43,301 nucleotides of DNA. Origin: an uncultured Candidatus Saccharibacteria bacterium (GTDB taxonomy: Bacteria > Patescibacteriota > Minisyncoccia > Phycocordibacterales > WO2-35-19). Below the pieces are notes generated by a model that was not told where the DNA came from, did not search any database, and saw nothing but the letters and a program-made list of their open reading frames with translations. Each line of letters opens with the position of its first letter. The first letter of the stretch is position 1. Positions 7,343 through 41,232 of this stretch are shown piece after piece. The stretch is from NCBI GenBank assembly GCA_964601125.1, contig CAZRKB010000001.1, forward strand, positions 6,371-49,671, in the 5' to 3' direction. The translations under genes were made by a program, and so were the position numbers.

Positions 7343-7422
7343 TAATTAACATGGTTTTTCTCCTTTCTAAACCCAAATTACCACCTGTAAATATTCTTTT
7401 CAAGAAAATACCGCAAATGAGT

Positions 7423-7458
7423 ATTGTAAACCTAATTGTAAACTAACCCGAGTTTACA
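7423..7458. promoter_or_regulatory. GTTTACA repeat cluster (two direct copies plus one inverted) upstream of fic
   Basis: ATTGTAAAC at 7423 and 7435 (12-nt period); inverted pair TGTAAACT (7437-7444) / AGTTTACA (7451-7458) spanning the stop of the upstream gene. Confidence 0.4.
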
Positions 7459-7972
7459 CCCTCCTACCATCATAGGCCCAATGGAGCAGAGCTTGGCGTT
7501 GGGTGGGGCGACAGGAGAGGTCGCCAGCGCGGCAATTTTTGGCAACTTGGGCCAAATGTCTCTTTATCGCCACCCATCTTTTGATTTGCCTTTCATCGTC
7601 CTCGCTCCTGCGGCCAAGGTAATAACGGCAATACCACTCAAACCATCCATGTGGGTCTTGTTTGTTTATCCACCCTTTTTTCTTCCAAACCGAAAGCGGC
7701 TGACTCGCACCGACTTTAAAAAAATTTAACTCGTCATGTTTTTCTCCATCTTTTGAAAGCTTTACTCCCTTAAACCAATCCCTAGGCAAATCTTTGGGAA
7801 TTAGACCTTTGACACCAATAAAATATGCTCCACCAAAAACACCGAACTTGAGCATTTGCTTTGGTGTGAGATCAGGTTTAAACCTTTTATCAAAATTTTT
7901 GCCAATTGGTTCAGTTAAAAAATATTTATAATTTTTCTGAAAATCATCGCTGTAAGTAACTTGTTTTTTCAT
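7454..7972 (-). CDS. conserved hypothetical protein (W/R-rich motif PHGWFEWYCRYYLGRR)
   Basis: ORF trimmed to MKKQVTY to avoid overlapping the upstream gene; no TM helix; family not recognised; 3' third visibly G+C richer. Confidence 0.5.
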   Translation of the reverse strand: MKKQVTYSDDFQKNYKYFLTEPIGKNFDKRFKPDLTPKQMLKFGVFGGAYFIGVKGLIPKDLPRDWFKGVKLSKDGEKHDELNFFKVGASQPLSVWKKKGWINKQDPHGWFEWYCRYYLGRRSEDDERQIKRWVAIKRHLAQVAKNCRAGDLSCRPTQRQALLHWAYDGRRV

Positions 7973-8962: not shown

Positions 8963-10642
8963 TTACATCTTTTCTGGTACTTTGATACCCAAAAGATGGA
9001 GACCATTTTTGAGAATGTGATAGACCGACTCAGTGAGTGCCACCTTGTAAGAAGAAGTTGGGTCTTCTTCACTTATTATTTTGTTATTGCCATAAAAACT
9101 ATTGAAAGCTGAGGCGAGTTCGGTGAGATAGGTGACCAAATGATGAGGTGCGTACTCCCGCCCCGCTCGCTCGACAATTTCCGGAAAACGATAGAGCATT
9201 CTTTCGATTTCTGTTGTTCCCCAATTTTCCAAGGTTAGTCCTTGGAAGTTTTTTGTGTTATTAATTATCGCTTTTGAAAGCACCGATTTGGCTCGGACTG
9301 CTGTGTATTGTAAGTATGGCCCAGAGTCGCCTTCAAAAGAAATTGATTGGTCAAAATCAAAAATAATGTCCCCTCCGATCGCCTGCCTGAGTACCGAATA
9401 CTTTATCGCCCCTATAGCTACCGCTTCAGCTATTTTTAATTTTTCTTCTTCGTTATAATCCCGGTCCTTCAATTTTTCTGAAACTAGAGTTTGCACATCA
9501 TCAATCAATTGTTCCCCGGTTATAACATTGCCTTTACGCGAAGACATTTTGCCGGAAGGAAGTTTCAACATCCCATGAGAAAGGTGCTCGGTATTTTCTG
9601 CTACTTCCGGATTTATTTGTCCCAATGCTTTTAGCACAACTCTAAAATACCCATCCTGCTCGTTTGCAGTAATTATTATTGATTTGTCAGACTTATATTT
9701 ATCAAACTTGCGCAAAGCGTGAGCGATATCTTTAGCTTCATACAAAGGTAAGCCTTCATTATTCAAAAAAACTCTTGTGTGTAGTTTTTGGTCATACTTT
9801 TCTCCCCTGAAAATAACTGCGCCGTCGCTTTCTTCAAAAACCCCTTTTTGTAAAAATTCTTTTACTATTTTTTGAGCATCATCCGAAACTTCGCTTTCAA
9901 AAAAGTAAAAATCAAATTTGGTATTAAGTTTTTTATACAGCTCTTCAAAATGCGCGAGCGACACCTCTCTGCCCCATTCATAAATTTTCAAAAGTTCCTG
10001 ATCGCTCTTTTCATAAATTTTTTTGTTTATTTCCTTTATTTCTTCTTGGGCTGCTGGATCGTCCTCATACGCATTTGAGCCACTCGCATACGCCTTACCT
10101 ATATACTCAACCTTTTCTGCCAAATTTCCTTCCATTATTCCTCCCTCCTTTTTTATACCCCAAACAGCTTTGGCAATATGAAGTCCAACATCTCCTTGGT
10201 AAGTATTCCTTTTAACTTCTGCGCCACTCCATTCAAAAATGTTTGAGATCGATTGACCGATCACATTGCCCATCAAGTGCCCGATGTGAAGCGGTTTCAA
10301 TACATTTGTGTTTGTGTATTCTATTATTATCTTCTTGTTATCAAGCAAATCTGTTTTCCCAAAATTTTCTTTTTTCTTATTTATTTCGATAATCGAATCA
10401 GCGAAAAAATGTTTCGAGAGGAAAATATTTATGAATCTCTCATTCGCCAATTCTATCTTTTCGATTTCAGGCAATTTATTTTTCTCTAATTTTTCTATCA
10501 CCCCCTCTCCCCCTCTTATGCTAAGCGGGGGTAAAATCAAAGCAAAATCTCCCTTTTCAATTTCTTTTGGATGCACCAAAACCACACTCTCCATCTCAAG
10601 TGTCTCCTTTACCCACTGTTCAATTTTTTCTTTTATTGGCAT
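8963..10642 (-). CDS. argS: arginine--tRNA ligase
   Basis: 559 aa; class I HIGH motif PLHIGHLMGNVIG; C-terminal anticodon-binding region; contains family 1 repeat copy J in frame. Confidence 0.93.
   Translation of the reverse strand: MPIKEKIEQWVKETLEMESVVLVHPKEIEKGDFALILPPLSIRGGEGVIEKLEKNKLPEIEKIELANERFINIFLSKHFFADSIIEINKKKENFGKTDLLDNKKIIIEYTNTNVLKPLHIGHLMGNVIGQSISNIFEWSGAEVKRNTYQGDVGLHIAKAVWGIKKEGGIMEGNLAEKVEYIGKAYASGSNAYEDDPAAQEEIKEINKKIYEKSDQELLKIYEWGREVSLAHFEELYKKLNTKFDFYFFESEVSDDAQKIVKEFLQKGVFEESDGAVIFRGEKYDQKLHTRVFLNNEGLPLYEAKDIAHALRKFDKYKSDKSIIITANEQDGYFRVVLKALGQINPEVAENTEHLSHGMLKLPSGKMSSRKGNVITGEQLIDDVQTLVSEKLKDRDYNEEEKLKIAEAVAIGAIKYSVLRQAIGGDIIFDFDQSISFEGDSGPYLQYTAVRAKSVLSKAIINNTKNFQGLTLENWGTTEIERMLYRFPEIVERAGREYAPHHLVTYLTELASAFNSFYGNNKIISEEDPTSSYKVALTESVYHILKNGLHLLGIKVPEKM
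10498..10531 (-). repeat. family 1 element (hairpin + G-rich tail), copy J, inside argS
   Basis: Minus strand CCCCCGCTTAGCATAAGAGGGGG (9 bp plus 1 mismatch) followed by AGAGGGGGTGA; encodes PPLSIRGGEGV. Confidence 0.7.
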
Positions 10643-11164
10643 AGCTTTTTAAATAGCTTATACCCAGTCATCGCTCCGTTCAAGGCGTTGTGTGGTTCGG
10701 GCTCCGGCTCGATACCAAAAAGGTTGCAGGCTGATTTCAAACTCCAACTTTTTTCTTTTTTCAAACCCTTCTCCCAAGCAATTGAAAGTAGGTCGAGTCG
10801 ATCATGGTTTTCTTTGGTGCTCATTGGGTTATCGATCTCTGCTTTAAAAAACGCTTCATTTATAAAACCCCAATCAAAGCTTACATTGTAAGCGCAAAAA
10901 ACGTTTTCTCCTGCTCTATCTTTGTATTCCTTCATCGCTTACTGCATCTGCCCAATCTTTTTCGCTGTAACCGTTGTAATCAAGAGCTGCTTGCACCGCA
11001 TTTTCTATCCTTTCTGGTTTTACTTTTCTATTATAACTATCAATGATTTCAAAAGTTTGTGGATCAAAAAGCACCAAACCAATCTCAAGTATTTCATGCA
11101 CTCCAGGCACATCCCCACTTGTCTCCAAATCCGTCATAGCAATTTTTTTCTTGCTTTTGTCCAT
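10633..11164 (-). pseudogene. DEDDh (DnaQ-like) 3'-5' exonuclease split by a frameshift
   Basis: ORF 10916..11164 carries Exo I (MTDLETSG); ORF 10633..10935 carries Exo II (AYNVSFDWGF) and Exo III-like HNALNGA; they overlap by 20 nt in different frames. Confidence 0.7.
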
Positions 11165-11756: not shown

Positions 11757-12973
11757 TTTCGTAAAATTTTATCAATTTTTCTAGCAATGTTTACAAAATC
11801 TTTTTCTTTTTTGCCCCGAGTGGTTTCTGCTGCGCTCCCGAGCCTTATGCCAGAAGGATCCATCGGACTCCTGGTTTCGTTTGGAATTGTGTTTTTGTTT
11901 ACGATGATTCCATTTTTCTCTAATCTATCACTCGCGTCCTTACCCGAAATTCCTTTTCCTTCCATCCAAGTATCAACTAAAATTAAGTGGCTGTCTGTCC
12001 CACCAGAAACTACGCGCCAACCAAGTTTTTTTAACTCATCCGACAGAGCCTTGGCGTTCTTTATAACCTGCTTCGCATATTTTTGGAATGCAGGAGTTTT
12101 AGCTTCTTTGAGAGCCACTGCCACAGCGGCTATCTGGTTTAAGTGTGGCCCACCCTGTAACCCCGGGAAAACAGCTTTGTCTATAAGTTCTGAAATACTT
12201 TTATCTTCCCCTTTTGCATTTTTAATAGTTACATCATTACGTGAAAATATAATGGCGGAGCGAGGACCGCGAAGAGTTTTATGCACTGTAGTAGTTACCA
12301 CATGAGCACAAGGAAAAGGAGATGGATAAGCCTTGCCCGCAACAAGCCCCGCAAAATGAGACATGTCTACCATGAGTATCGCCCCGCAACTGTCGGCTAT
12401 CTCTCTAAATTTTTTGAAATCAACAATACGAGGGTAGGCAGTGAATCCGGCCACGATTATGTTTGGCTTTTCCCTTAAAGCGATTTCCTTTATTTTCTCA
12501 TAATCAATCTGTTCTGTATCTTTGTTCACCCCATAAGGCACCTGCTGCCAAAATTTACCGGTAGCTGAAACTTTGTGCCCATGAGTGAGGTGCCCACCAT
12601 GGTCAAGAGACATGCCCATAATCTTGCCTTGTCCTGAGCTTGTCGAAGGGCCACCCTTTGGTACAAGGCCCAGATAAACAGCCAAGTTGGCAGGACTACC
12701 TGAGAGAGGTTGTACATTAACACTCCACTTTGAAGTGAGGTTGAAAAGTTTAATAGCTCTTTCTTTACAAAGATTTTCAATTTTGTCTACAAAGGTTTGC
12801 CCTCCATAATATCTTTTGCCAGGATACCCTTCAGCATATTTATTTGTAAGTTCGCTCCCAAGCGCCTCGAGCACATCTTTAGAAACATAGTTTTCAGAAG
12901 CAATCAGGTTTATAACGCTTTTCTGTCTCTTCTTCTCTGCATCTATTAGCTTTTTTATTTGTTGGTCTTTCAT
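11753..12973 (-). CDS. glyA: serine hydroxymethyltransferase
   Basis: 406 aa; SLDHGGHLTHG and PLP-lysine region TTTVHKTLRGPR. Confidence 0.95.
   Translation of the reverse strand: MKDQQIKKLIDAEKKRQKSVINLIASENYVSKDVLEALGSELTNKYAEGYPGKRYYGGQTFVDKIENLCKERAIKLFNLTSKWSVNVQPLSGSPANLAVYLGLVPKGGPSTSSGQGKIMGMSLDHGGHLTHGHKVSATGKFWQQVPYGVNKDTEQIDYEKIKEIALREKPNIIVAGFTAYPRIVDFKKFREIADSCGAILMVDMSHFAGLVAGKAYPSPFPCAHVVTTTVHKTLRGPRSAIIFSRNDVTIKNAKGEDKSISELIDKAVFPGLQGGPHLNQIAAVAVALKEAKTPAFQKYAKQVIKNAKALSDELKKLGWRVVSGGTDSHLILVDTWMEGKGISGKDASDRLEKNGIIVNKNTIPNETRSPMDPSGIRLGSAAETTRGKKEKDFVNIARKIDKILRK
12626..12652 (-). repeat. 27-nt G+C-rich in-frame segment in glyA (family 4 candidate)
   Basis: Minus strand GGCCCTTCGACAAGCTCAGGACAAGGC encodes GPSTSSGQG within the otherwise conserved L-x-P-G-D-x-(I/V)-(M/L)-G-M region; resembles the nested segment of copy H. 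Confidence 0.45.
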
Positions 12974-13985: not shown

Positions 13986-13986
13986 A

Positions 13987-14023
13987 CCTCACCCCTAACC
14001 CCTCTCCTAGATTCAGGAGAGGG
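13987..14023 (-). repeat. family 1 element, copy A
   Basis: Minus strand CCCTCTCC-TGAATCTA-GGAGAGGG-GTTAGGGGTGAGG; begins 2 nt after the thyA stop. Confidence 0.85.
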
Positions 14024-14036
14024 AAAGAAAAAAGAC

Positions 14037-30722: not shown

Positions 30723-31196
30723 TTACTCTTTTTTCAATTCAGCCTTTTGTTCTGTGTTTTCGAGAGAAGTTTCTTCTTCCCCCCTCTCCTCTTGCAAGGA
30801 GAGGGGTTGGGGGTGAGGTAGTTCCTCTGGCACCTCTCTTACATTTCTCATCGCTCTCTTGATTTCTTTGGCTGCCTTTTTCCTTATGTGGTATAGCTTA
30901 GCCCTGCGAACTTTTGAGCGCTTTACTACTTCTATTTTTTCTATGCTTGGAGAATATATAGGGAAAATCCTCTCCACCCCCACACCAGAAGTAACCTTTC
31001 TTAATGTAAATGTTCCACCTGCTTCCCTGCCATGCTTTACAGCCAAACAAAGACCCTCGAAGGCCTGCAATCTGGTTTTTGGTTTGCCGGTCTTTTTATC
31101 CTTTTCGATAATTTTTTGGGTAACCTTAACAGTATCCCCGGATCTTATATCCAAATTTTTCCTTTCTTCTATTTTTACTGGTGAAATGATTTTCAT
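30723..31196 (-). CDS. rplS: 50S ribosomal protein L19 with ~40-aa C-terminal extension
   Basis: RLQAFEGLCLAV, GVGVERIFPIYSP and RRAKLYHIRKK match L19; ATG 1 nt after the rplB stop; the tail contains repeat copy C. Confidence 0.9.
   Translation of the reverse strand: MKIISPVKIEERKNLDIRSGDTVKVTQKIIEKDKKTGKPKTRLQAFEGLCLAVKHGREAGGTFTLRKVTSGVGVERIFPIYSPSIEKIEVVKRSKVRRAKLYHIRKKAAKEIKRAMRNVREVPEELPHPQPLSLQEERGEEETSLENTEQKAELKKE
30779..30818 (+). repeat. family 1 element, copy C, inside the rplS 3' extension
   Basis: CCCCTCTCC-TCTTGCAA-GGAGAGGGG-TTGGGGGTGAGG; encodes LPHPQPLSLQEERGE on the gene strand. Confidence 0.88.
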
Positions 31197-31197
31197 A

Positions 31198-32043
31198 TTA
31201 TTTCTTAGCAACTCTCCTTCTGCTTACAATATATTTATCAGAATACTTCTTTGATCGACGTGTTTTCTGACCTTTACCTGTTGGTCTACCCCAAAGAGAA
31301 ACCGCCCTCTTTCTGCCTCTACCTTGACGGCCTTCGCCTCCACCATGTGGATGATCAACTGGGTTCATAGCTGTACCCCTAACAGTAGGGCGTATACCCT
31401 TCCATCGCGATCTACCGGCCTTTCCATAATTTTCAAGTCTTTTTTCTTCATTTGACACCTCACCTATGCTTGCAAAACAGCCCTCTCGCACTTTTCTTAC
31501 TTCAGTTGACGGCATCTTCAAGTCAACATAGCCAGCATCCTTTGCGACAACTTGCACGAAGTTGCCAGCAGACCTGGCGATCTTGGCACCCTGATAAGGC
31601 TTGAGTTCTACATTGTAAACAAATGTCCCTACAGGTATCAATTTCAAAGGAAGCCTGTTTCCTTGCTTTATTTCAGCGTTTTCTCCAGTCACAAACTCTT
31701 CTCCAGGCTTTACACCCTTTGGTAATAAAACGTATTTCTTCTCACCATCTCTATAGACAGCGAGACCAATAAAGCCAGTACGGTTTGGATCATATTCAAC
31801 CGAAACTATTTTGTATGGTATACCGATTTTTTTGTAATTAAAATCAACTTCCCTCCAAAGACGTTTGTGTCCGCCCCCTTTGTGTCGCACACTGATCCTG
31901 CCCGATCCGCTTCTACCTACAGCCCTCTTCCTTCCGTGCAAGAGAGACTTTAGAGGCTGATTTCCGGTAAGCACACCCTTATAAAGCACCACGCTCGTGT
32001 GCCTCCTTGATTTGGTTGTTGGTTTGTAAGTTTTGATTGCCAT
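31198..32043 (-). CDS. rplB: 50S ribosomal protein L2
   Basis: 281 aa; GTAMNPVDHPHGGGEGR motif. Confidence 0.97.
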   Translation of the reverse strand: MAIKTYKPTTKSRRHTSVVLYKGVLTGNQPLKSLLHGRKRAVGRSGSGRISVRHKGGGHKRLWREVDFNYKKIGIPYKIVSVEYDPNRTGFIGLAVYRDGEKKYVLLPKGVKPGEEFVTGENAEIKQGNRLPLKLIPVGTFVYNVELKPYQGAKIARSAGNFVQVVAKDAGYVDLKMPSTEVRKVREGCFASIGEVSNEEKRLENYGKAGRSRWKGIRPTVRGTAMNPVDHPHGGGEGRQGRGRKRAVSLWGRPTGKGQKTRRSKKYSDKYIVSRRRVAKK

Positions 32044-39059: not shown

Positions 39060-39066
39060 ACCCAAA

Positions 39067-39072
39067 ATTATA
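39067..39072 (-). promoter_or_regulatory. -10 box TATAAT, 7 nt from the ATG of the 1037-aa gene
   Basis: Read on the minus strand. Confidence 0.45.
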
Positions 39073-39136
39073 CGTTAAGAAATTTTTAAATAAAAGGGAA
39101 AACCTGCTCTGTATTAGACTTAGCTATGATACGAAT

Positions 39137-39164
39137 TTGACATGTGCTTTAGTTTGTGTATAAT
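39137..39164 (+). promoter_or_regulatory. near-consensus sigma70-type promoter TTGACA-16-TATAAT (nusA leader)
   Basis: Both hexamers perfect, read directly from the sequence. Confidence 0.7.
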
Positions 39165-39188
39165 GGAGGCGATACTGAAATCAGACGC

Positions 39189-39216
39189 GTCCGCCTTCCG
39201 GCGGACTTTGTGTTTT
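39189..39216 (+). terminator. intrinsic terminator-like hairpin within the nusA leader
   Basis: GTCCGCC-TTCC-GGCGGAC followed by TTTGTGTTTT, ~25 nt after the predicted start site and 68 nt before the nusA ATG. Confidence 0.65.
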
Positions 39217-39250
39217 AAAAGTATTATTAATAATAAAGAAGGCTCGGAAC

Positions 39251-39288
39251 CCCCTTCTCTTAATGTAAGAGAAGGGTTTGGGGATGAG
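39251..39288 (+). repeat. family 1 element, copy E, overlapping the nusA start codon
   Basis: CCCTTCTCTTA-ATG-TAAGAGAAGGG (11 bp) followed by TTTGGGGATGAG; the ATG in the tail is the predicted nusA start. Confidence 0.8.
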
Positions 39289-40519
39289 TTATAAACCTAT
39301 GTTTGACTTAAAAGTTATAAATTCGGTCCTTGATCAACTAAAAGAAGAGAGAGGTATACCAAAAGAAAAGGTGCTTGAAGCCATAGAAATGGCCATAGCA
39401 ACAGCTTATAGGAAAGAATACGGCAAGCGCGGACAGATAATCCGAGCCAAATTCGACATACAAACCGGTGCCATAGAAATGAGCCAGGTCAAAATCGTAG
39501 TAGACGAAACAAAAGTCTTTATGGACAGAGAATCCTTAGAGGAAGCCTTGGCTGAAGCAGAAGAAAAAGACGACGAAAGAGTTTTGTTCAATCCCGAGCA
39601 TCATATCCTAGTAGAAGACGCAAAAAGGATTAAAAAAGGTGCGGTAGTCGGAGATGAGATCATTTTTCCCATCGAATCAAAGGGTGATTACGGAAGAATA
39701 GCCAGCCAGACTGCCAAACAGGTCATAATGCAAAAAATCCGTGAGGCAGAAAGAGAATCAGTACTCAAAGAGTTTGGTGAGAGAGAAGGAGATATAATAA
39801 CCGGCTCTGTGCAGAGGATCGAGCGCGGAAACATATTTATAGATGTAGGCAGAGCGGTAGGCATCATGCCTTATGAAGAACAAATCCCAGGCGAGCGATT
39901 TAGCCAAGGAGAGAGAGTACGCGCTTATCTTTACCGAGTAGAAGACGGACCAAAAGGCGTGGTTTTGAGACTTTCTCGTTCTCACCCCAAGTTCCTTATC
40001 GAGCTTTTCAAAAATGAAGTGCCGGAGCTTGTCAACAATTCGATAGAAATAAAGAGTGTAGCTCGAGAACCAGGGTCAAGATCAAAAGTAGCCGTTGTTT
40101 CAAATGACAACTACATTGATCCGGTCGGATCATTGGTTGGGCAAAGAGGTGTAAGAGTAGCCACCGTAACAAGTGAGCTAGGAGGAGAAAAGATAGACAT
40201 TATAGAGTGGTCAGATAACGCAGCAGAATTTATCGAAGACGCCCTCTCTCCTGCCAAAATAGTGTCAGTTGACATTGATGAAGAAAACAGAGAGGCAAAA
40301 GTGGTGGTTTCAGAAGATCAGCAATCTCTCGCTATCGGCAAAGGTGGCCAAAACGTACGCCTCGCTGCTAAATTAACTGGTTGGAGGATAGACATTAATT
40401 CCATAAAGGGTGAGGAGCTCGGCGGAGCAGAAGGAGTCGACTCCGCTCAAGGCTCCGTCGAGCCGAAGGAGGAAAAGAAGGAAGAAAAGGTAGAAGAATC
40501 AAAAGAGGAAAATTCATAA
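39284..40519 (+). CDS. nusA: transcription termination/antitermination factor NusA
   Basis: S1 and two KH regions (GQRGVRV, GKGGQNVRLA); acidic/lysine-rich tail; the start could be 39284 or 39299. Confidence 0.93.
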   Translation: MSYKPMFDLKVINSVLDQLKEERGIPKEKVLEAIEMAIATAYRKEYGKRGQIIRAKFDIQTGAIEMSQVKIVVDETKVFMDRESLEEALAEAEEKDDERVLFNPEHHILVEDAKRIKKGAVVGDEIIFPIESKGDYGRIASQTAKQVIMQKIREAERESVLKEFGEREGDIITGSVQRIERGNIFIDVGRAVGIMPYEEQIPGERFSQGERVRAYLYRVEDGPKGVVLRLSRSHPKFLIELFKNEVPELVNNSIEIKSVAREPGSRSKVAVVSNDNYIDPVGSLVGQRGVRVATVTSELGGEKIDIIEWSDNAAEFIEDALSPAKIVSVDIDEENREAKVVVSEDQQSLAIGKGGQNVRLAAKLTGWRIDINSIKGEELGGAEGVDSAQGSVEPKEEKKEEKVEESKEENS

Positions 40520-40555
40520 CCCCCTCCCAACCTCTCCCTTACCTTAAGGGAGAGG
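40520..40555 (-). repeat. family 1 element, copy F
   Basis: Minus strand CCTCTCCCTT-AAGGT-AAGGGAGAGG-TTGGGAGGGGG; starts 1 nt after the nusA stop. Confidence 0.8.
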
Positions 40556-40583
40556 TGCCAAACAAAACAAAATTTCACAAAAA

Positions 40584-40607
40584 AGCCCCTGAAATAGGGG
40601 CTTTTTT
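40584..40607 (+). terminator. rho-independent terminator after nusA
   Basis: AGCCCCT-GAAAT-AGGGGCT followed by TTTTTT. Confidence 0.8.
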
Positions 40608-40663: not shown

Positions 40664-41035
40664 GTGGACGACAACAATAAAGAATTTTTTGCAACTTTCA
40701 GATTCACTCCCGACAAAAACCCGGTGGGAGACGCGGTTGGGCGCAAACTCATACTCGCGATCTTGTTCAGTGTTGCTCGAGAATTTCACTCGAAAGAAAG
40801 AGTTTGGTCAGAACTGAAAGAACGAGCAAGTGTTTTTGGAATAAAGGACGTCCTAGATAAATACGAAGACGTTCTGATTCTCCGTGAGGAGATTGGCTCA
40901 ACTTTGAGCCAAATTGACCAATCACAGCAAACATTTGGAAGATTTTTGGATCTGGCCATCAAGGCTGGCTACGACGTGAAGAACGTGTCTATTGACAGCC
41001 TCCTGGATGAAGGAGGAAAAACAAAGACCACCTGA
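40664..41035 (+). CDS. hypothetical protein in a self-contained cassette (own promoter, SD, GTG start, terminator)
   Basis: 123-aa ORF; AGGAGG 8 nt upstream of the GTG; TTGCAA-17-TATAAT upstream; strong terminator downstream; no motif recognised. Confidence 0.55.
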   Translation: MDDNNKEFFATFRFTPDKNPVGDAVGRKLILAILFSVAREFHSKERVWSELKERASVFGIKDVLDKYEDVLILREEIGSTLSQIDQSQQTFGRFLDLAIKAGYDVKNVSIDSLLDEGGKTKTT

Positions 41036-41048
41036 GGACAAGACCAAC

Positions 41049-41087
41049 CCCCCGACGCGGAAGACGCGTCGGGGGTTTTGATTTTTT
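41049..41087 (+). terminator. rho-independent terminator after the cassette gene
   Basis: 11-bp stem CCCCCGACGCG / CGCGTCGGGGG, loop GAAGA, then TTTTGATTTTTT. Confidence 0.85.
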
Positions 41088-41102: not shown

Positions 41103-41140
41103 CCCCCTCCCTTTAGAGTAAAGGGAGGGTTAGGGAGGGA
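41103..41140 (+). repeat. family 1 element, copy G
   Basis: CCCTCCCTTTA-GAG-TAAAGGGAGGG-TTAGGGAGGGA (11-bp stem). Confidence 0.8.
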
Positions 41141-41232
41141 TTAGTTTGGAAAACGAGCAGATGATACTTTAAATTTATCTTATGGTCTGATATCCTTAAT
41201 TCATAATTCTTTATTCATAATTCAAATTTTTT

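Follow-up and report, generated by a model that had tools for sequence, protein, structure and literature searches.

How does a short, G+C-rich repeat, of a family that published work treats as intergenic, come to be read in frame as part of an essential enzyme? The question is raised by a 43,301-nucleotide (nt) stretch of contig CAZRKB010000001.1 (positions 6,371 to 49,671, GenBank assembly GCA_964601125.1; hereafter the window), which derives from an uncultured Candidatus Saccharibacteria bacterium within the candidate phyla radiation (CPR). Here a 35-nt repeat copy occupies positions 10497-10531 of the minus strand, within argS (8963..10642, minus strand), the gene for arginyl-tRNA synthetase (ArgRS). 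The copy is very probably a dispersed repeat of the BoxC/PIT/TM type (PIT, potential intrastrand triplex), which was fixed once in an ancestor and is translated as a tolerated passenger loop. Repeats of this family have been known since the 1990s and are still unexplained; we know of no function or mobility mechanism for them. Earlier studies of PIT repeats are those of Hoyne and Maher (2000, 2002).

A repeat copy read in frame within argS

The copy has the form CCCCCGCTT-AGCAT-AAGAGGGGG-AGA-GGGGGTGAT, comprises codons P38 to V48 plus two nt of the I49 codon, and is read as L37-PPLSIRGGEGV-I49, with P38-V48 lying 70 residues ahead of the HIGH motif. An earlier note on this DNA, made from the letters alone, had set the element at 10498-10531, the right location but one base short at the 3′ end (10497). 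Its description of a family copy in sense orientation that encodes PPLSIRGGEGV, around residue 40 of the N-terminal domain and upstream of HIGH (H119-H122, in the context PLHIGH), matches both the open reading frame (ORF) and the minus-strand letters. The G+C content of the copy is 67%, compared with 38% for argS. No chance match to its 23-nt hairpin is expected (100 shuffles), and as RNA the hairpin part, for which alone the folding energy was computed, has a minimum free energy of -15.5 kcal/mol (z = -2.2). A search of Rfam with positions 10300-10700 returned no match at E<=1, and the element is therefore not a known structured RNA. Of the three sense frames, two are stopped by TAG and TAA in the first loop, which leaves a single open one.

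In the direction of transcription the copy begins with a pyrimidine (Y) arm, CCCCCGCTT (10523..10531, minus strand, as are all parts of the copy), which supplies codons P38, P39 and L40. Loop 1, AGCAT (10518..10522), lies within S41 and I42 and contains the stops of the two closed frames. It is followed by the purine (R) arm AAGAGGGGG (10509..10517; I42, R43, G44 and G45), loop 2, AGA (10506..10508), and a third, reverse-Hoogsteen-type block, GGGGGTGAT (10497..10505), which is a mirror of the R arm and would form six G·G, one A·A and two T·A contacts with it. The third block encodes E46, G47, V48 and I49. The whole copy (10497..10531) is of the class II intrastrand-triplex, or BoxC-PIT-TM, type, with a stem of 9 nt, loops of 5 and 3 nt, one duplex mismatch and no triad mismatch. 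The earlier note had seen in it a hairpin plus AGAGGGGGTGA; the letters were correct, while the tail is better described as the third block, mirroring the purine arm, of a three-block intrastrand-triplex design. Neither direct repeats nor a target-site duplication were found beside the copy, whether in its flanks or in comparison with locus L005 of a relative. Tags of the GTAG or CGTC kind are absent from its flanks (TTTTA/CCCCC..., ...GTGAT/AGAAA) and from every other copy in the window.

The gene that carries the copy is intact. Its 559-residue product matches the Pfam families tRNA-synt_1d (4e-40) and DALR_1 (1e-26), its best PDB matches are all ArgRS (yeast 1BS2 at 1.6e-67), and the signature motifs HIGH (119-122) and GKMSSRKG (364-371) are preserved. 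The protein has the hallmarks of a class I ArgRS, namely HIGH, a KMSK-type motif, the tRNA-synt_1d domain and the DALR anticodon-binding domain. An AlphaFold2 model built on an alignment of 91 sequences (mean pLDDT 93, pTM 0.92) is consistent with this assignment.

The copy follows a three-block, triplex-type design

In the repeat unit of the window an arm rich in C and T is followed by its complement, rich in G and A, and then by a G/T-rich tail. This tail is a mirror image of the purine arm, T being allowed opposite A, and not a second hairpin arm. These features were cast as a triplex grammar, in which a pyrimidine arm, a loop of 3-8 nt and a Watson-Crick purine arm with at most one mismatch (stem of at least 8 nt) are followed by a loop of 2-5 nt and an antiparallel block with G·G, A·A or T·A triads, again with at most one mismatch. 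The 43-kb window contains eight such copies, compared with none in 30 shuffles, and eight of the 11 copies that the earlier note listed on other criteria conform to the grammar. The single duplex mismatch of the argS copy is G.A, and none of its nine triads is mismatched. Across 10 copies, which were chosen with the same grammar, the third block mismatches its cognate purine arm at 3% of positions and non-cognate arms at 36%; a parallel reading, as a direct repeat, gives misfits at 57 of 98 positions. This three-way covariation indicates that it is the design which persists from copy to copy, not the sequence.

The BoxC repeats of E. coli, renamed PIT by Hoyne and Maher and subsequently ‘TM-ECO', a class II purine-motif triplex (PMC4666352), have the same architecture. 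The TM-ECO pattern is CCCTCNCCC-N3-6-GGGNGAGGG-N3-GGGNGAGGG, with E. coli copies such as CCCTCTCCCTTGAGGGAGAGGGTTAGGGTGAGGGT, and in vitro its single strand folds stably into a triplex (Holder et al. 2015, PMC4666352). The argS copy falls within the published ITxF limits (stem of 6-15 nt, at most one mismatch, loops of 1-6 nt; PMC4666352). It also has the class II order, pyrimidine block 5′, purine block, reverse-Hoogsteen block 3′, with GGGGGTGAT antiparallel to AAGAGGGGG. It does not match the literal TM-ECO consensus, CCCTCNCCC N3-6 GGGNGAGGG N3 GGGNGAGGG, its arms differing at at least four positions per block, and therefore represents a divergent subfamily. The window copy at 13986-14024 and a 21-mer discussed below are much nearer to that consensus than the argS copy, and other copies in the window nearly match the type A units of E. 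coli, the TTA second loop included. Judged by its sequence, the argS copy is a member of the BoxC/PIT/TM family of class II potential intrastrand triplexes.

Three copies in the window are intragenic, in argS, in folD and in the tail of rplS, and five others are intergenic; the intragenic copies occur in both orientations relative to transcription. The family extends well beyond this genome. A 21-mer from the window, GGAGAGGGGTTRGGGGTGAGG, was found in more than 120 contigs from Chloroflexota, Bacteroidota, Planctomycetota, Cyanobacteria, Proteobacteria, Acidobacteriota and CPR, and in 103 of the 130 matches a pyrimidine arm lies 2-10 nt upstream of it. In the open-access literature no report was found of BoxC/PIT/TM copies in coding regions or in CPR.

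Of the other copies in the window, that at 30781-30820 (plus strand) lies in rplS (30723-31211, minus strand), where its antisense reading is LPHPQPLSLQEERG. It sits in a C-terminal extension of L19 of about 40 residues, past the Pfam domain (residues 18-118). The copy at 39252-39290 occupies a divergent spacer before nusA. Around this spacer (~39065-39290) the genes turn from the minus to the plus strand, and the GC skew passes from negative to positive around 38-40 kb; the region may be a switch point resembling a replication origin.

The copy replaces a variable linker of ArgRS

Is the segment foreign to ArgRS, or ordinary ArgRS sequence that happens to resemble the repeat? It was aligned with 118 full-length ArgRS homologues, out of the 120 closest proteins listed. 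The segment is present only in P0001, P0058 and P0059, and a search with residues 22-95 against 5.8 billion proteins retrieved the same three carriers and no further one. Of 130 close homologues, all but two lack it. The peptide of P0059 is identical to that of the window, while P0058 has LSSLNVRGGQGVI. In the nearest element-free relatives (P0003 and P0005) the region reads GDFALI-INGPEAEKDF-EKL, compared with GDFALI-LPPLSIRGGEGVI-EKL in the window, so that 10 linker residues are swapped for 13, a net gain of three. At the DNA level, by comparison with L005, 30 nt are swapped for 39 nt between identical flanks. The edges of the replaced linker are set by GDFALIL (G31-L37; 10532..10552, minus strand) upstream and by EKL (E50-L52; 10487..10495, minus strand) downstream, both shared with element-free relatives. 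The segment is not conserved ArgRS sequence; the finding that the earlier note had named as one that would refute its proposal was thus not obtained. The length difference from hairpin-free relatives that the note expected does exist, but amounts to only three residues, since about 10 native linker residues were replaced. HMMER aligns the segment ungapped to native residues of the yeast enzyme, which is a reflection of the longer linker in yeast and not of homology to the repeat.

In the alignment, canonical ArgRS have an invariant GD(Y/F) followed by a 24-residue helix-loop, STNVAMVLAKKLGKNPxxLA, which in the CPR clade of the query has shrunk to a linker of 9-10 residues without a fixed sequence; across relatives the site is hypervariable in both sequence and length. 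The surrounding Add-1 domain (Arg_tRNA_synt_N, PF03485) gives no Pfam match in the window ArgRS. Like that domain, however, the window protein retains the GD(F/Y) and (A)N-x-x-F-I-N motifs, which align with yeast 1BS2/1F7U; the two differ in the degenerate linker of the CPR clade, and it is this linker that hosts the repeat. N67, F70 and N72 are kept and align with yeast N106, F109 and Q111, F70 and N72 being invariant in the alignment. We take the three yeast residues to be contacts to the D-loop of the tRNA. In the AlphaFold2 model residues 33-36 form a strand, 37-45 a coil with one short turn and 46-54 a helix, which begins with the residues encoded by the third block. The earlier note had also called for a structure model of the N-terminal domain, and in that model the segment is a low-confidence loop, block 41-50 having a pLDDT of 72, the lowest of the domain. 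On this model, the contribution of the hairpin to the protein is predicted to be a floppy loop, and the helix that follows takes its first turn from the third block.

The antisense reading of the argS copy is ITPSPPLMLSGG, and comparison of the two translations bears out the earlier observation that both orientations yield Pro/Leu/Ser-then-Gly-rich peptides. The note had gone on to propose that this two-way reading explains why the repeat is tolerated. The likeness of the peptides is real but trivial, because it follows from a pyrimidine/purine palindrome; tolerance in argS is better explained by the hypervariable, low-confidence loop in which the copy lies and by its single open sense frame.

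Other inserts are found at or near this site. The GC-rich segments PPKLSAKES and PPKPVAKED occupy the very site of the argS copy in L126, L127 and L128; they were considered as copies of the same repeat but rejected, since they fail both the hairpin and the triplex grammar. An insert resembling LRQAQGDL, which likewise fails the triplex grammar, lies one helix-turn downstream in P0010, P0035, P0037, P0038, P0065, P0083 and P0098. In glyA of the window (12629-12652, minus strand; residues ~108-115) there is an in-frame eight-residue insert, GPSTSSGQ (GGCCCTTCGACAAGCTCAGGACAA), just before the GGHLTHG active-site loop. It is absent from the SHMT of L001, L005 and L126 and looks like another GC-rich repeat, of the ‘LRQAQGD / SSGQ' type met in the ArgRS of relatives.

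A probable single old acquisition and a mosaic gene

Two of the carriers have genomic loci that can be compared with the window. Contig L001, which encodes P0059, is syntenic with it (thyA-glyA-HD-exonuclease-argS), and neighbouring genes and gene order both link the window to this contig. The L001 copy differs from that of the window at three positions in 39 nt, loop 2 being TGA in place of AGA, and the G.A mismatch is common to both. In contig L004, which encodes P0058, the R arm and third block are letter-for-letter those of the window and L001; the Y arm has decayed (three mismatches), loop 2 is TCA, and the hairpin at the argS site is no better than shuffles (z = -0.6 vs -2.2 in the window). 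A tree of N-terminal residues 1-97, from which the element columns had been removed, places the three carriers together (SH-aLRT 96). These data are best accommodated by a single old acquisition with vertical inheritance.

The DnaQ/RNase T-like exonuclease gene upstream of argS (10633-11164, minus strand) is split in the window into two overlapping ORFs (10916..11164 and 10633..10935). The same exonuclease is a single gene of 180-184 codons in L001, L004 and L005; the split represents a frameshift or a sequencing error.

These orthologues also bear on the trivial explanation, namely a chance resemblance or an artefact of a chimeric contig. The assembly is of metagenome type, and contigs from the four best-matching sequencing runs cover the region in fragments only. 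However, shuffled sequences give no matches, and the same copy occurs at the same codon in separate assemblies of three runs (L001, L002 and L003, all with the same gene), with the decayed copy in a fourth (L004). Moreover, a 297-nt contig from an unrelated estuary metagenome (run X6) spans positions 10400-10696 with three differences. Chance or an artefact is thus extremely unlikely.

In the sequence of events that we favour, a copy would have become fixed in argS in the ancestor of three related CPR lineages (Patescibacteria/Paceibacteria-like). The landing site would have been the linker that joins strand 33-36 to helix 46-54 in the degenerate Add-1 domain, where ~30 nt of native linker would have been replaced by 39 nt. 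This replacement would by chance have fallen in the only open sense frame, which left argS intact. The repeat would now be read as an 11-residue Pro/Gly-rich loop, its last residues starting the next helix, and at the protein level it is presumably a neutral, tolerated passenger rather than a functional module. As to the mode of entry, the junctions look like the outcome of replacement or repair rather than of cut-and-paste.

Several points weigh against this reading. No relative shows an empty site in which the same flanks enclose a simple gap, and insertion is therefore inferred solely from the 10-for-13-residue replacement. That the repeat is translated is deduced from the integrity of the gene. 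At fourfold sites the element is more conserved between the window and L001 than the gene as a whole (1/7 vs 75/110 differing, p=0.007), and such synonymous conservation hints at constraint on the DNA over pure neutrality. Finally, grouping the three carriers in one clade is rejected by the ArgRS core (residues 100-345; AU test, p=3.5e-74). This conflict with the N-terminal tree shows argS to be mosaic, and the element-bearing N-terminal part may have come by lateral transfer.

The mosaic structure can be resolved further. At informative sites the window agrees with the carrier pair, L001 and L004, in residues 4-97 and ~456-553, and with L005/L126 in residues ~108-420; two deep types of ArgRS core exist, with a mutual identity of 52-60%. 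Given that the gene goes with the carrier pair at both of its ends and that synteny points the same way, a replaced core in one lineage is at least as likely as lateral transfer of the N-terminal part. The simplest reading of these sequences would be that the carriers are close relatives, that the repeat entered once in their common ancestor, and that one lineage later exchanged the central core of its argS. A co-conversion tract of ~200 nt around the element was also considered and rejected, as the gene agrees with the carrier pair at both ends and departs from it in the central core.

Constraint on the DNA and on the peptide

The conservation of the copy raises the possibility that it is kept by selection on the DNA, as a three-block site for a DNA-acting partner (for example a nuclease such as DUF559) or as a pause site in replication or recombination, the peptide being merely the price. 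Between the window and L001 the Y arm, loop 1, the R arm and the third block are identical (32/32 nt), although 68% of fourfold sites differ elsewhere in the gene. Despite some drift of the peptide, no letter of the R arm or the third block differs among the three lineages. The G.A mismatch is specific to this copy, and as it is common to the window and L001 their identity does not reflect homogenization by other copies. The covariation described above, in which the design and not the sequence is kept, is also in keeping with such selection. Since purine-motif triplexes are not formed in RNA (PMC4666352), any constraint of this kind would act on the DNA.

Closer inspection tempers this view. 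The fourfold sites that differ between the window and L001 number 1/7 in the element, 6/11 in the 65-codon flanks and 69/99 in the rest of the gene, so that, set against its immediate flanks, the element is not significantly more conserved (p=0.15); the comparison concerns one pair of sequences. The Y arm has decayed in L004 while the gene was kept, intragenic copies of the window lie in both orientations to transcription, and a search for DUF559 genes that covered the window and 114 kb of relatives' loci found none (see below). Nor was a stable triplex of these repeats seen in vivo or in double-stranded DNA (Holder et al. 2015, PMC4666352), and earlier work found BoxC/PIT repeats to be without promoter or terminator activity (PMC4666352). 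Selection on the DNA is consequently a rather improbable reason for the persistence of the copy.

With respect to the peptide, five of the 11 element residues are changed in P0058, compared with 11 of 65 in the flanks (p=0.047), and all five changes fall in the pyrimidine arm and the loops. On these very few sequences, there is a hint that the DNA design rather than the peptide persists. The drift in P0058 also argues against the Pro/Gly-rich loop being an adaptive addition to the N-terminal tRNA-binding domain, one that alters, for example, the contact with the tRNA D-loop or the binding of a partner. Such a role could be accommodated by an Add-1 site whose N67/F70/N72 motif is kept and by the identity of the peptide in the window and P0059. 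The segment is, however, absent from all other homologues, including closer core relatives; the model has low confidence here, and the same loop varies in sequence and length across the clade. An adaptive origin is accordingly very unlikely, and a tolerated passenger remains our preferred reading of the loop.

The copy nevertheless offers a natural experiment. It lies in the linker of an essential gene and is common to lineages whose synonymous sites are nearly saturated, being intact in two of them and half-decayed in one, as a result of which constraint on the coding sequence and constraint on the DNA design can be separated codon by codon.

A second permissive loop and the DUF559 neighbourhood

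The N-terminal linker is not the only part of ArgRS that harbours such repeats. A second loop, after SVLEKA (~residues 458-470, near the start of DALR), is also of low confidence and identity, and in relatives it contains antisense readings of the same repeat type, LTPxPSPxxxRGE. The carriers are P0058, P0030, P0039, P0066, P0088 and P0122, with variants in P0006 and P0062, and the DNA copy at the second loop of L004 (2159-2197, minus strand) conforms to the triplex grammar. Loci L129 and L130 are 98% identical across argS, and here 54 nt are replaced by 105 nt with a repeat copy (L129, ~7390-7500). By its sequence this difference is, again, a replacement and not a clean insertion. It matches the finding that repeat-bearing loci are unusually variable among E. 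coli strains (Holder et al. 2015, PMC4666352).

A candidate partner emerged from the gene neighbourhoods of the repeat. In a sample of 120 loci from many phyla, fetched solely through the repeat 21-mer and searched by tblastn, DUF559 (PF04480, E ~1e-34) is encoded in nine (L008, L021, L022, L029, L039, L076, L102, L106 and L120). In at least five of these (L008, L021, L022, L102 and L120) inverted copies of the repeat lie on either side of the gene, within ~100 nt of it. In L039 the C-terminus of DUF559 reads into a repeat copy (…LTPSPSPK). A DUF559 profile built from seven of these sequences was run against the window and 114 kb of loci from CPR relatives (L001, L004, L005, L126-L130) and found no member, the best match having E = 2. 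One ORF of the window (40664..41035, 123 aa) sits between inverted copies at 40518-40555 and 41105-41143. It was examined as a possible DUF559 cassette and rejected, having no Pfam match and no similarity to the DUF559 profile. Terminator-like GC-rich hairpins with T-runs, at 40583-40603 and 41049-41075, flank this ORF.

The association with DUF559 suggests another route, in which a homing-like gene conversion between orthologous genes, triggered by a nuclease, brought the copy to argS or carried it from one lineage to another; this would explain both the replacement junctions and the mosaic gene. Besides the bracketed DUF559 loci and the mosaicism of argS, the 105-for-54-nt replacement with a repeat copy in L129/L130 is what such a process might leave behind. 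In addition, the same ‘PSPINMRGE' copy occurs at the second loop in ArgRS of different core clades, and genes for competence-type pili adjoin in CPR relatives. The pattern within the window gene does not fit well, however. Both of its ends, and not just a tract around the element, go with the carrier pair, and the discordant core (~108-420) has its first boundary ~50 codons from the element. Furthermore, DUF559 is absent from the CPR DNA sampled and is only a putative cutter or binder of these repeats. Homing is on balance unlikely to have brought the copy to argS, and we retain a single fixation in the ancestor of the three carriers, by whatever form of replacement or repair.

A wider version of the same idea is that the repeats, far from being inert, are cargo-less ends of a pan-bacterial, DUF559-linked selfish element. 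They would occupy permissive loops in essential genes (two in ArgRS, others in FolD and the L19 tail). Their spread or turnover would proceed through break-and-repair, with replacement-type junctions as the result, and their design would be selected for recognition by the nuclease. We put this forward as a conjecture that is more probably wrong than right by a good margin. Were it true, break-and-repair turnover would contribute significantly to the diversification of loops in the housekeeping proteins of CPR bacteria with their tiny genomes.

Irrespective of how the repeats spread, ultra-small CPR genomes carry a pan-bacterial repeat inside housekeeping genes. For the annotation of these genomes this means that odd Pro/Gly-rich inserts can be repeat-derived and are not to be taken as lineage-specific functional motifs, and alignments and phylogenies built on aminoacyl-tRNA synthetases are affected by such repeat inserts.

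Comparison with known repeat systems

The argS copy is not a MITE (miniature inverted-repeat transposable element): it lacks a target-site duplication, and 30 nt were replaced by 39 nt. A parallel for its residence in a gene is provided by the Rickettsia palindromic elements (RPE), reportedly described by Ogata et al. in 2000 and discussed in PMC3733652. These, too, are palindromic repeats in frame in the genes of a reduced genome, tolerated at the surface of essential proteins and inherited across species. In contrast to the argS element, which is 35 nt long, lies in a CPR genome and belongs to a pan-bacterial family, RPEs are ~100-150 bp, specific to Rickettsia and without a mirror third block. 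The copy is not, therefore, an RPE, in-frame residence being all that the two have alike. Intragenic REPs are G+C-rich hairpins of 20-40 bp, some of which lie wholly in ORFs of known proteins and contribute ~10-15 residues per unit (Di Nocera et al. 2013, PMC3733652). The argS copy is likewise a short G+C-rich hairpin inside an ORF, but differs from the GTAG/CGTC REPs in having no tag and in possessing the third mirror block. Nor was a link to a RAYT transposase seen in the DNA covered here. By analogy with the repeats tolerated in the genes of Rickettsia and with REPs (PMC3733652), residence in frame appears ordinary in kind.

It is with the BoxC/PIT/TM repeats that the likeness is closest. 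A 9-nt Y arm, a 3-6-nt loop, a 9-nt R arm, a 3-nt loop and a 9-nt mirror G/T block are common to both, as are a high G+C content, dispersed copies, stems that are more conserved than loops, and occurrence in many phyla. The published copies, however, are intergenic and come from Proteobacteria and Cyanobacteria, whereas the argS copy appears to be translated, in an essential CPR gene, and its arms CCCCCGCTT/AAGAGGGGG/GGGGGTGAT fall outside the literal E. coli consensus. What is new relative to these systems is the presence of the BoxC/PIT/TM family inside a gene and in a CPR genome, an event that takes the form of a replacement, and an ArgRS with two permissive loops. New as well, to judge from the orthologous sequences, is a copy that has been carried for long and whose design of three blocks has stayed intact in two lineages out of the three.

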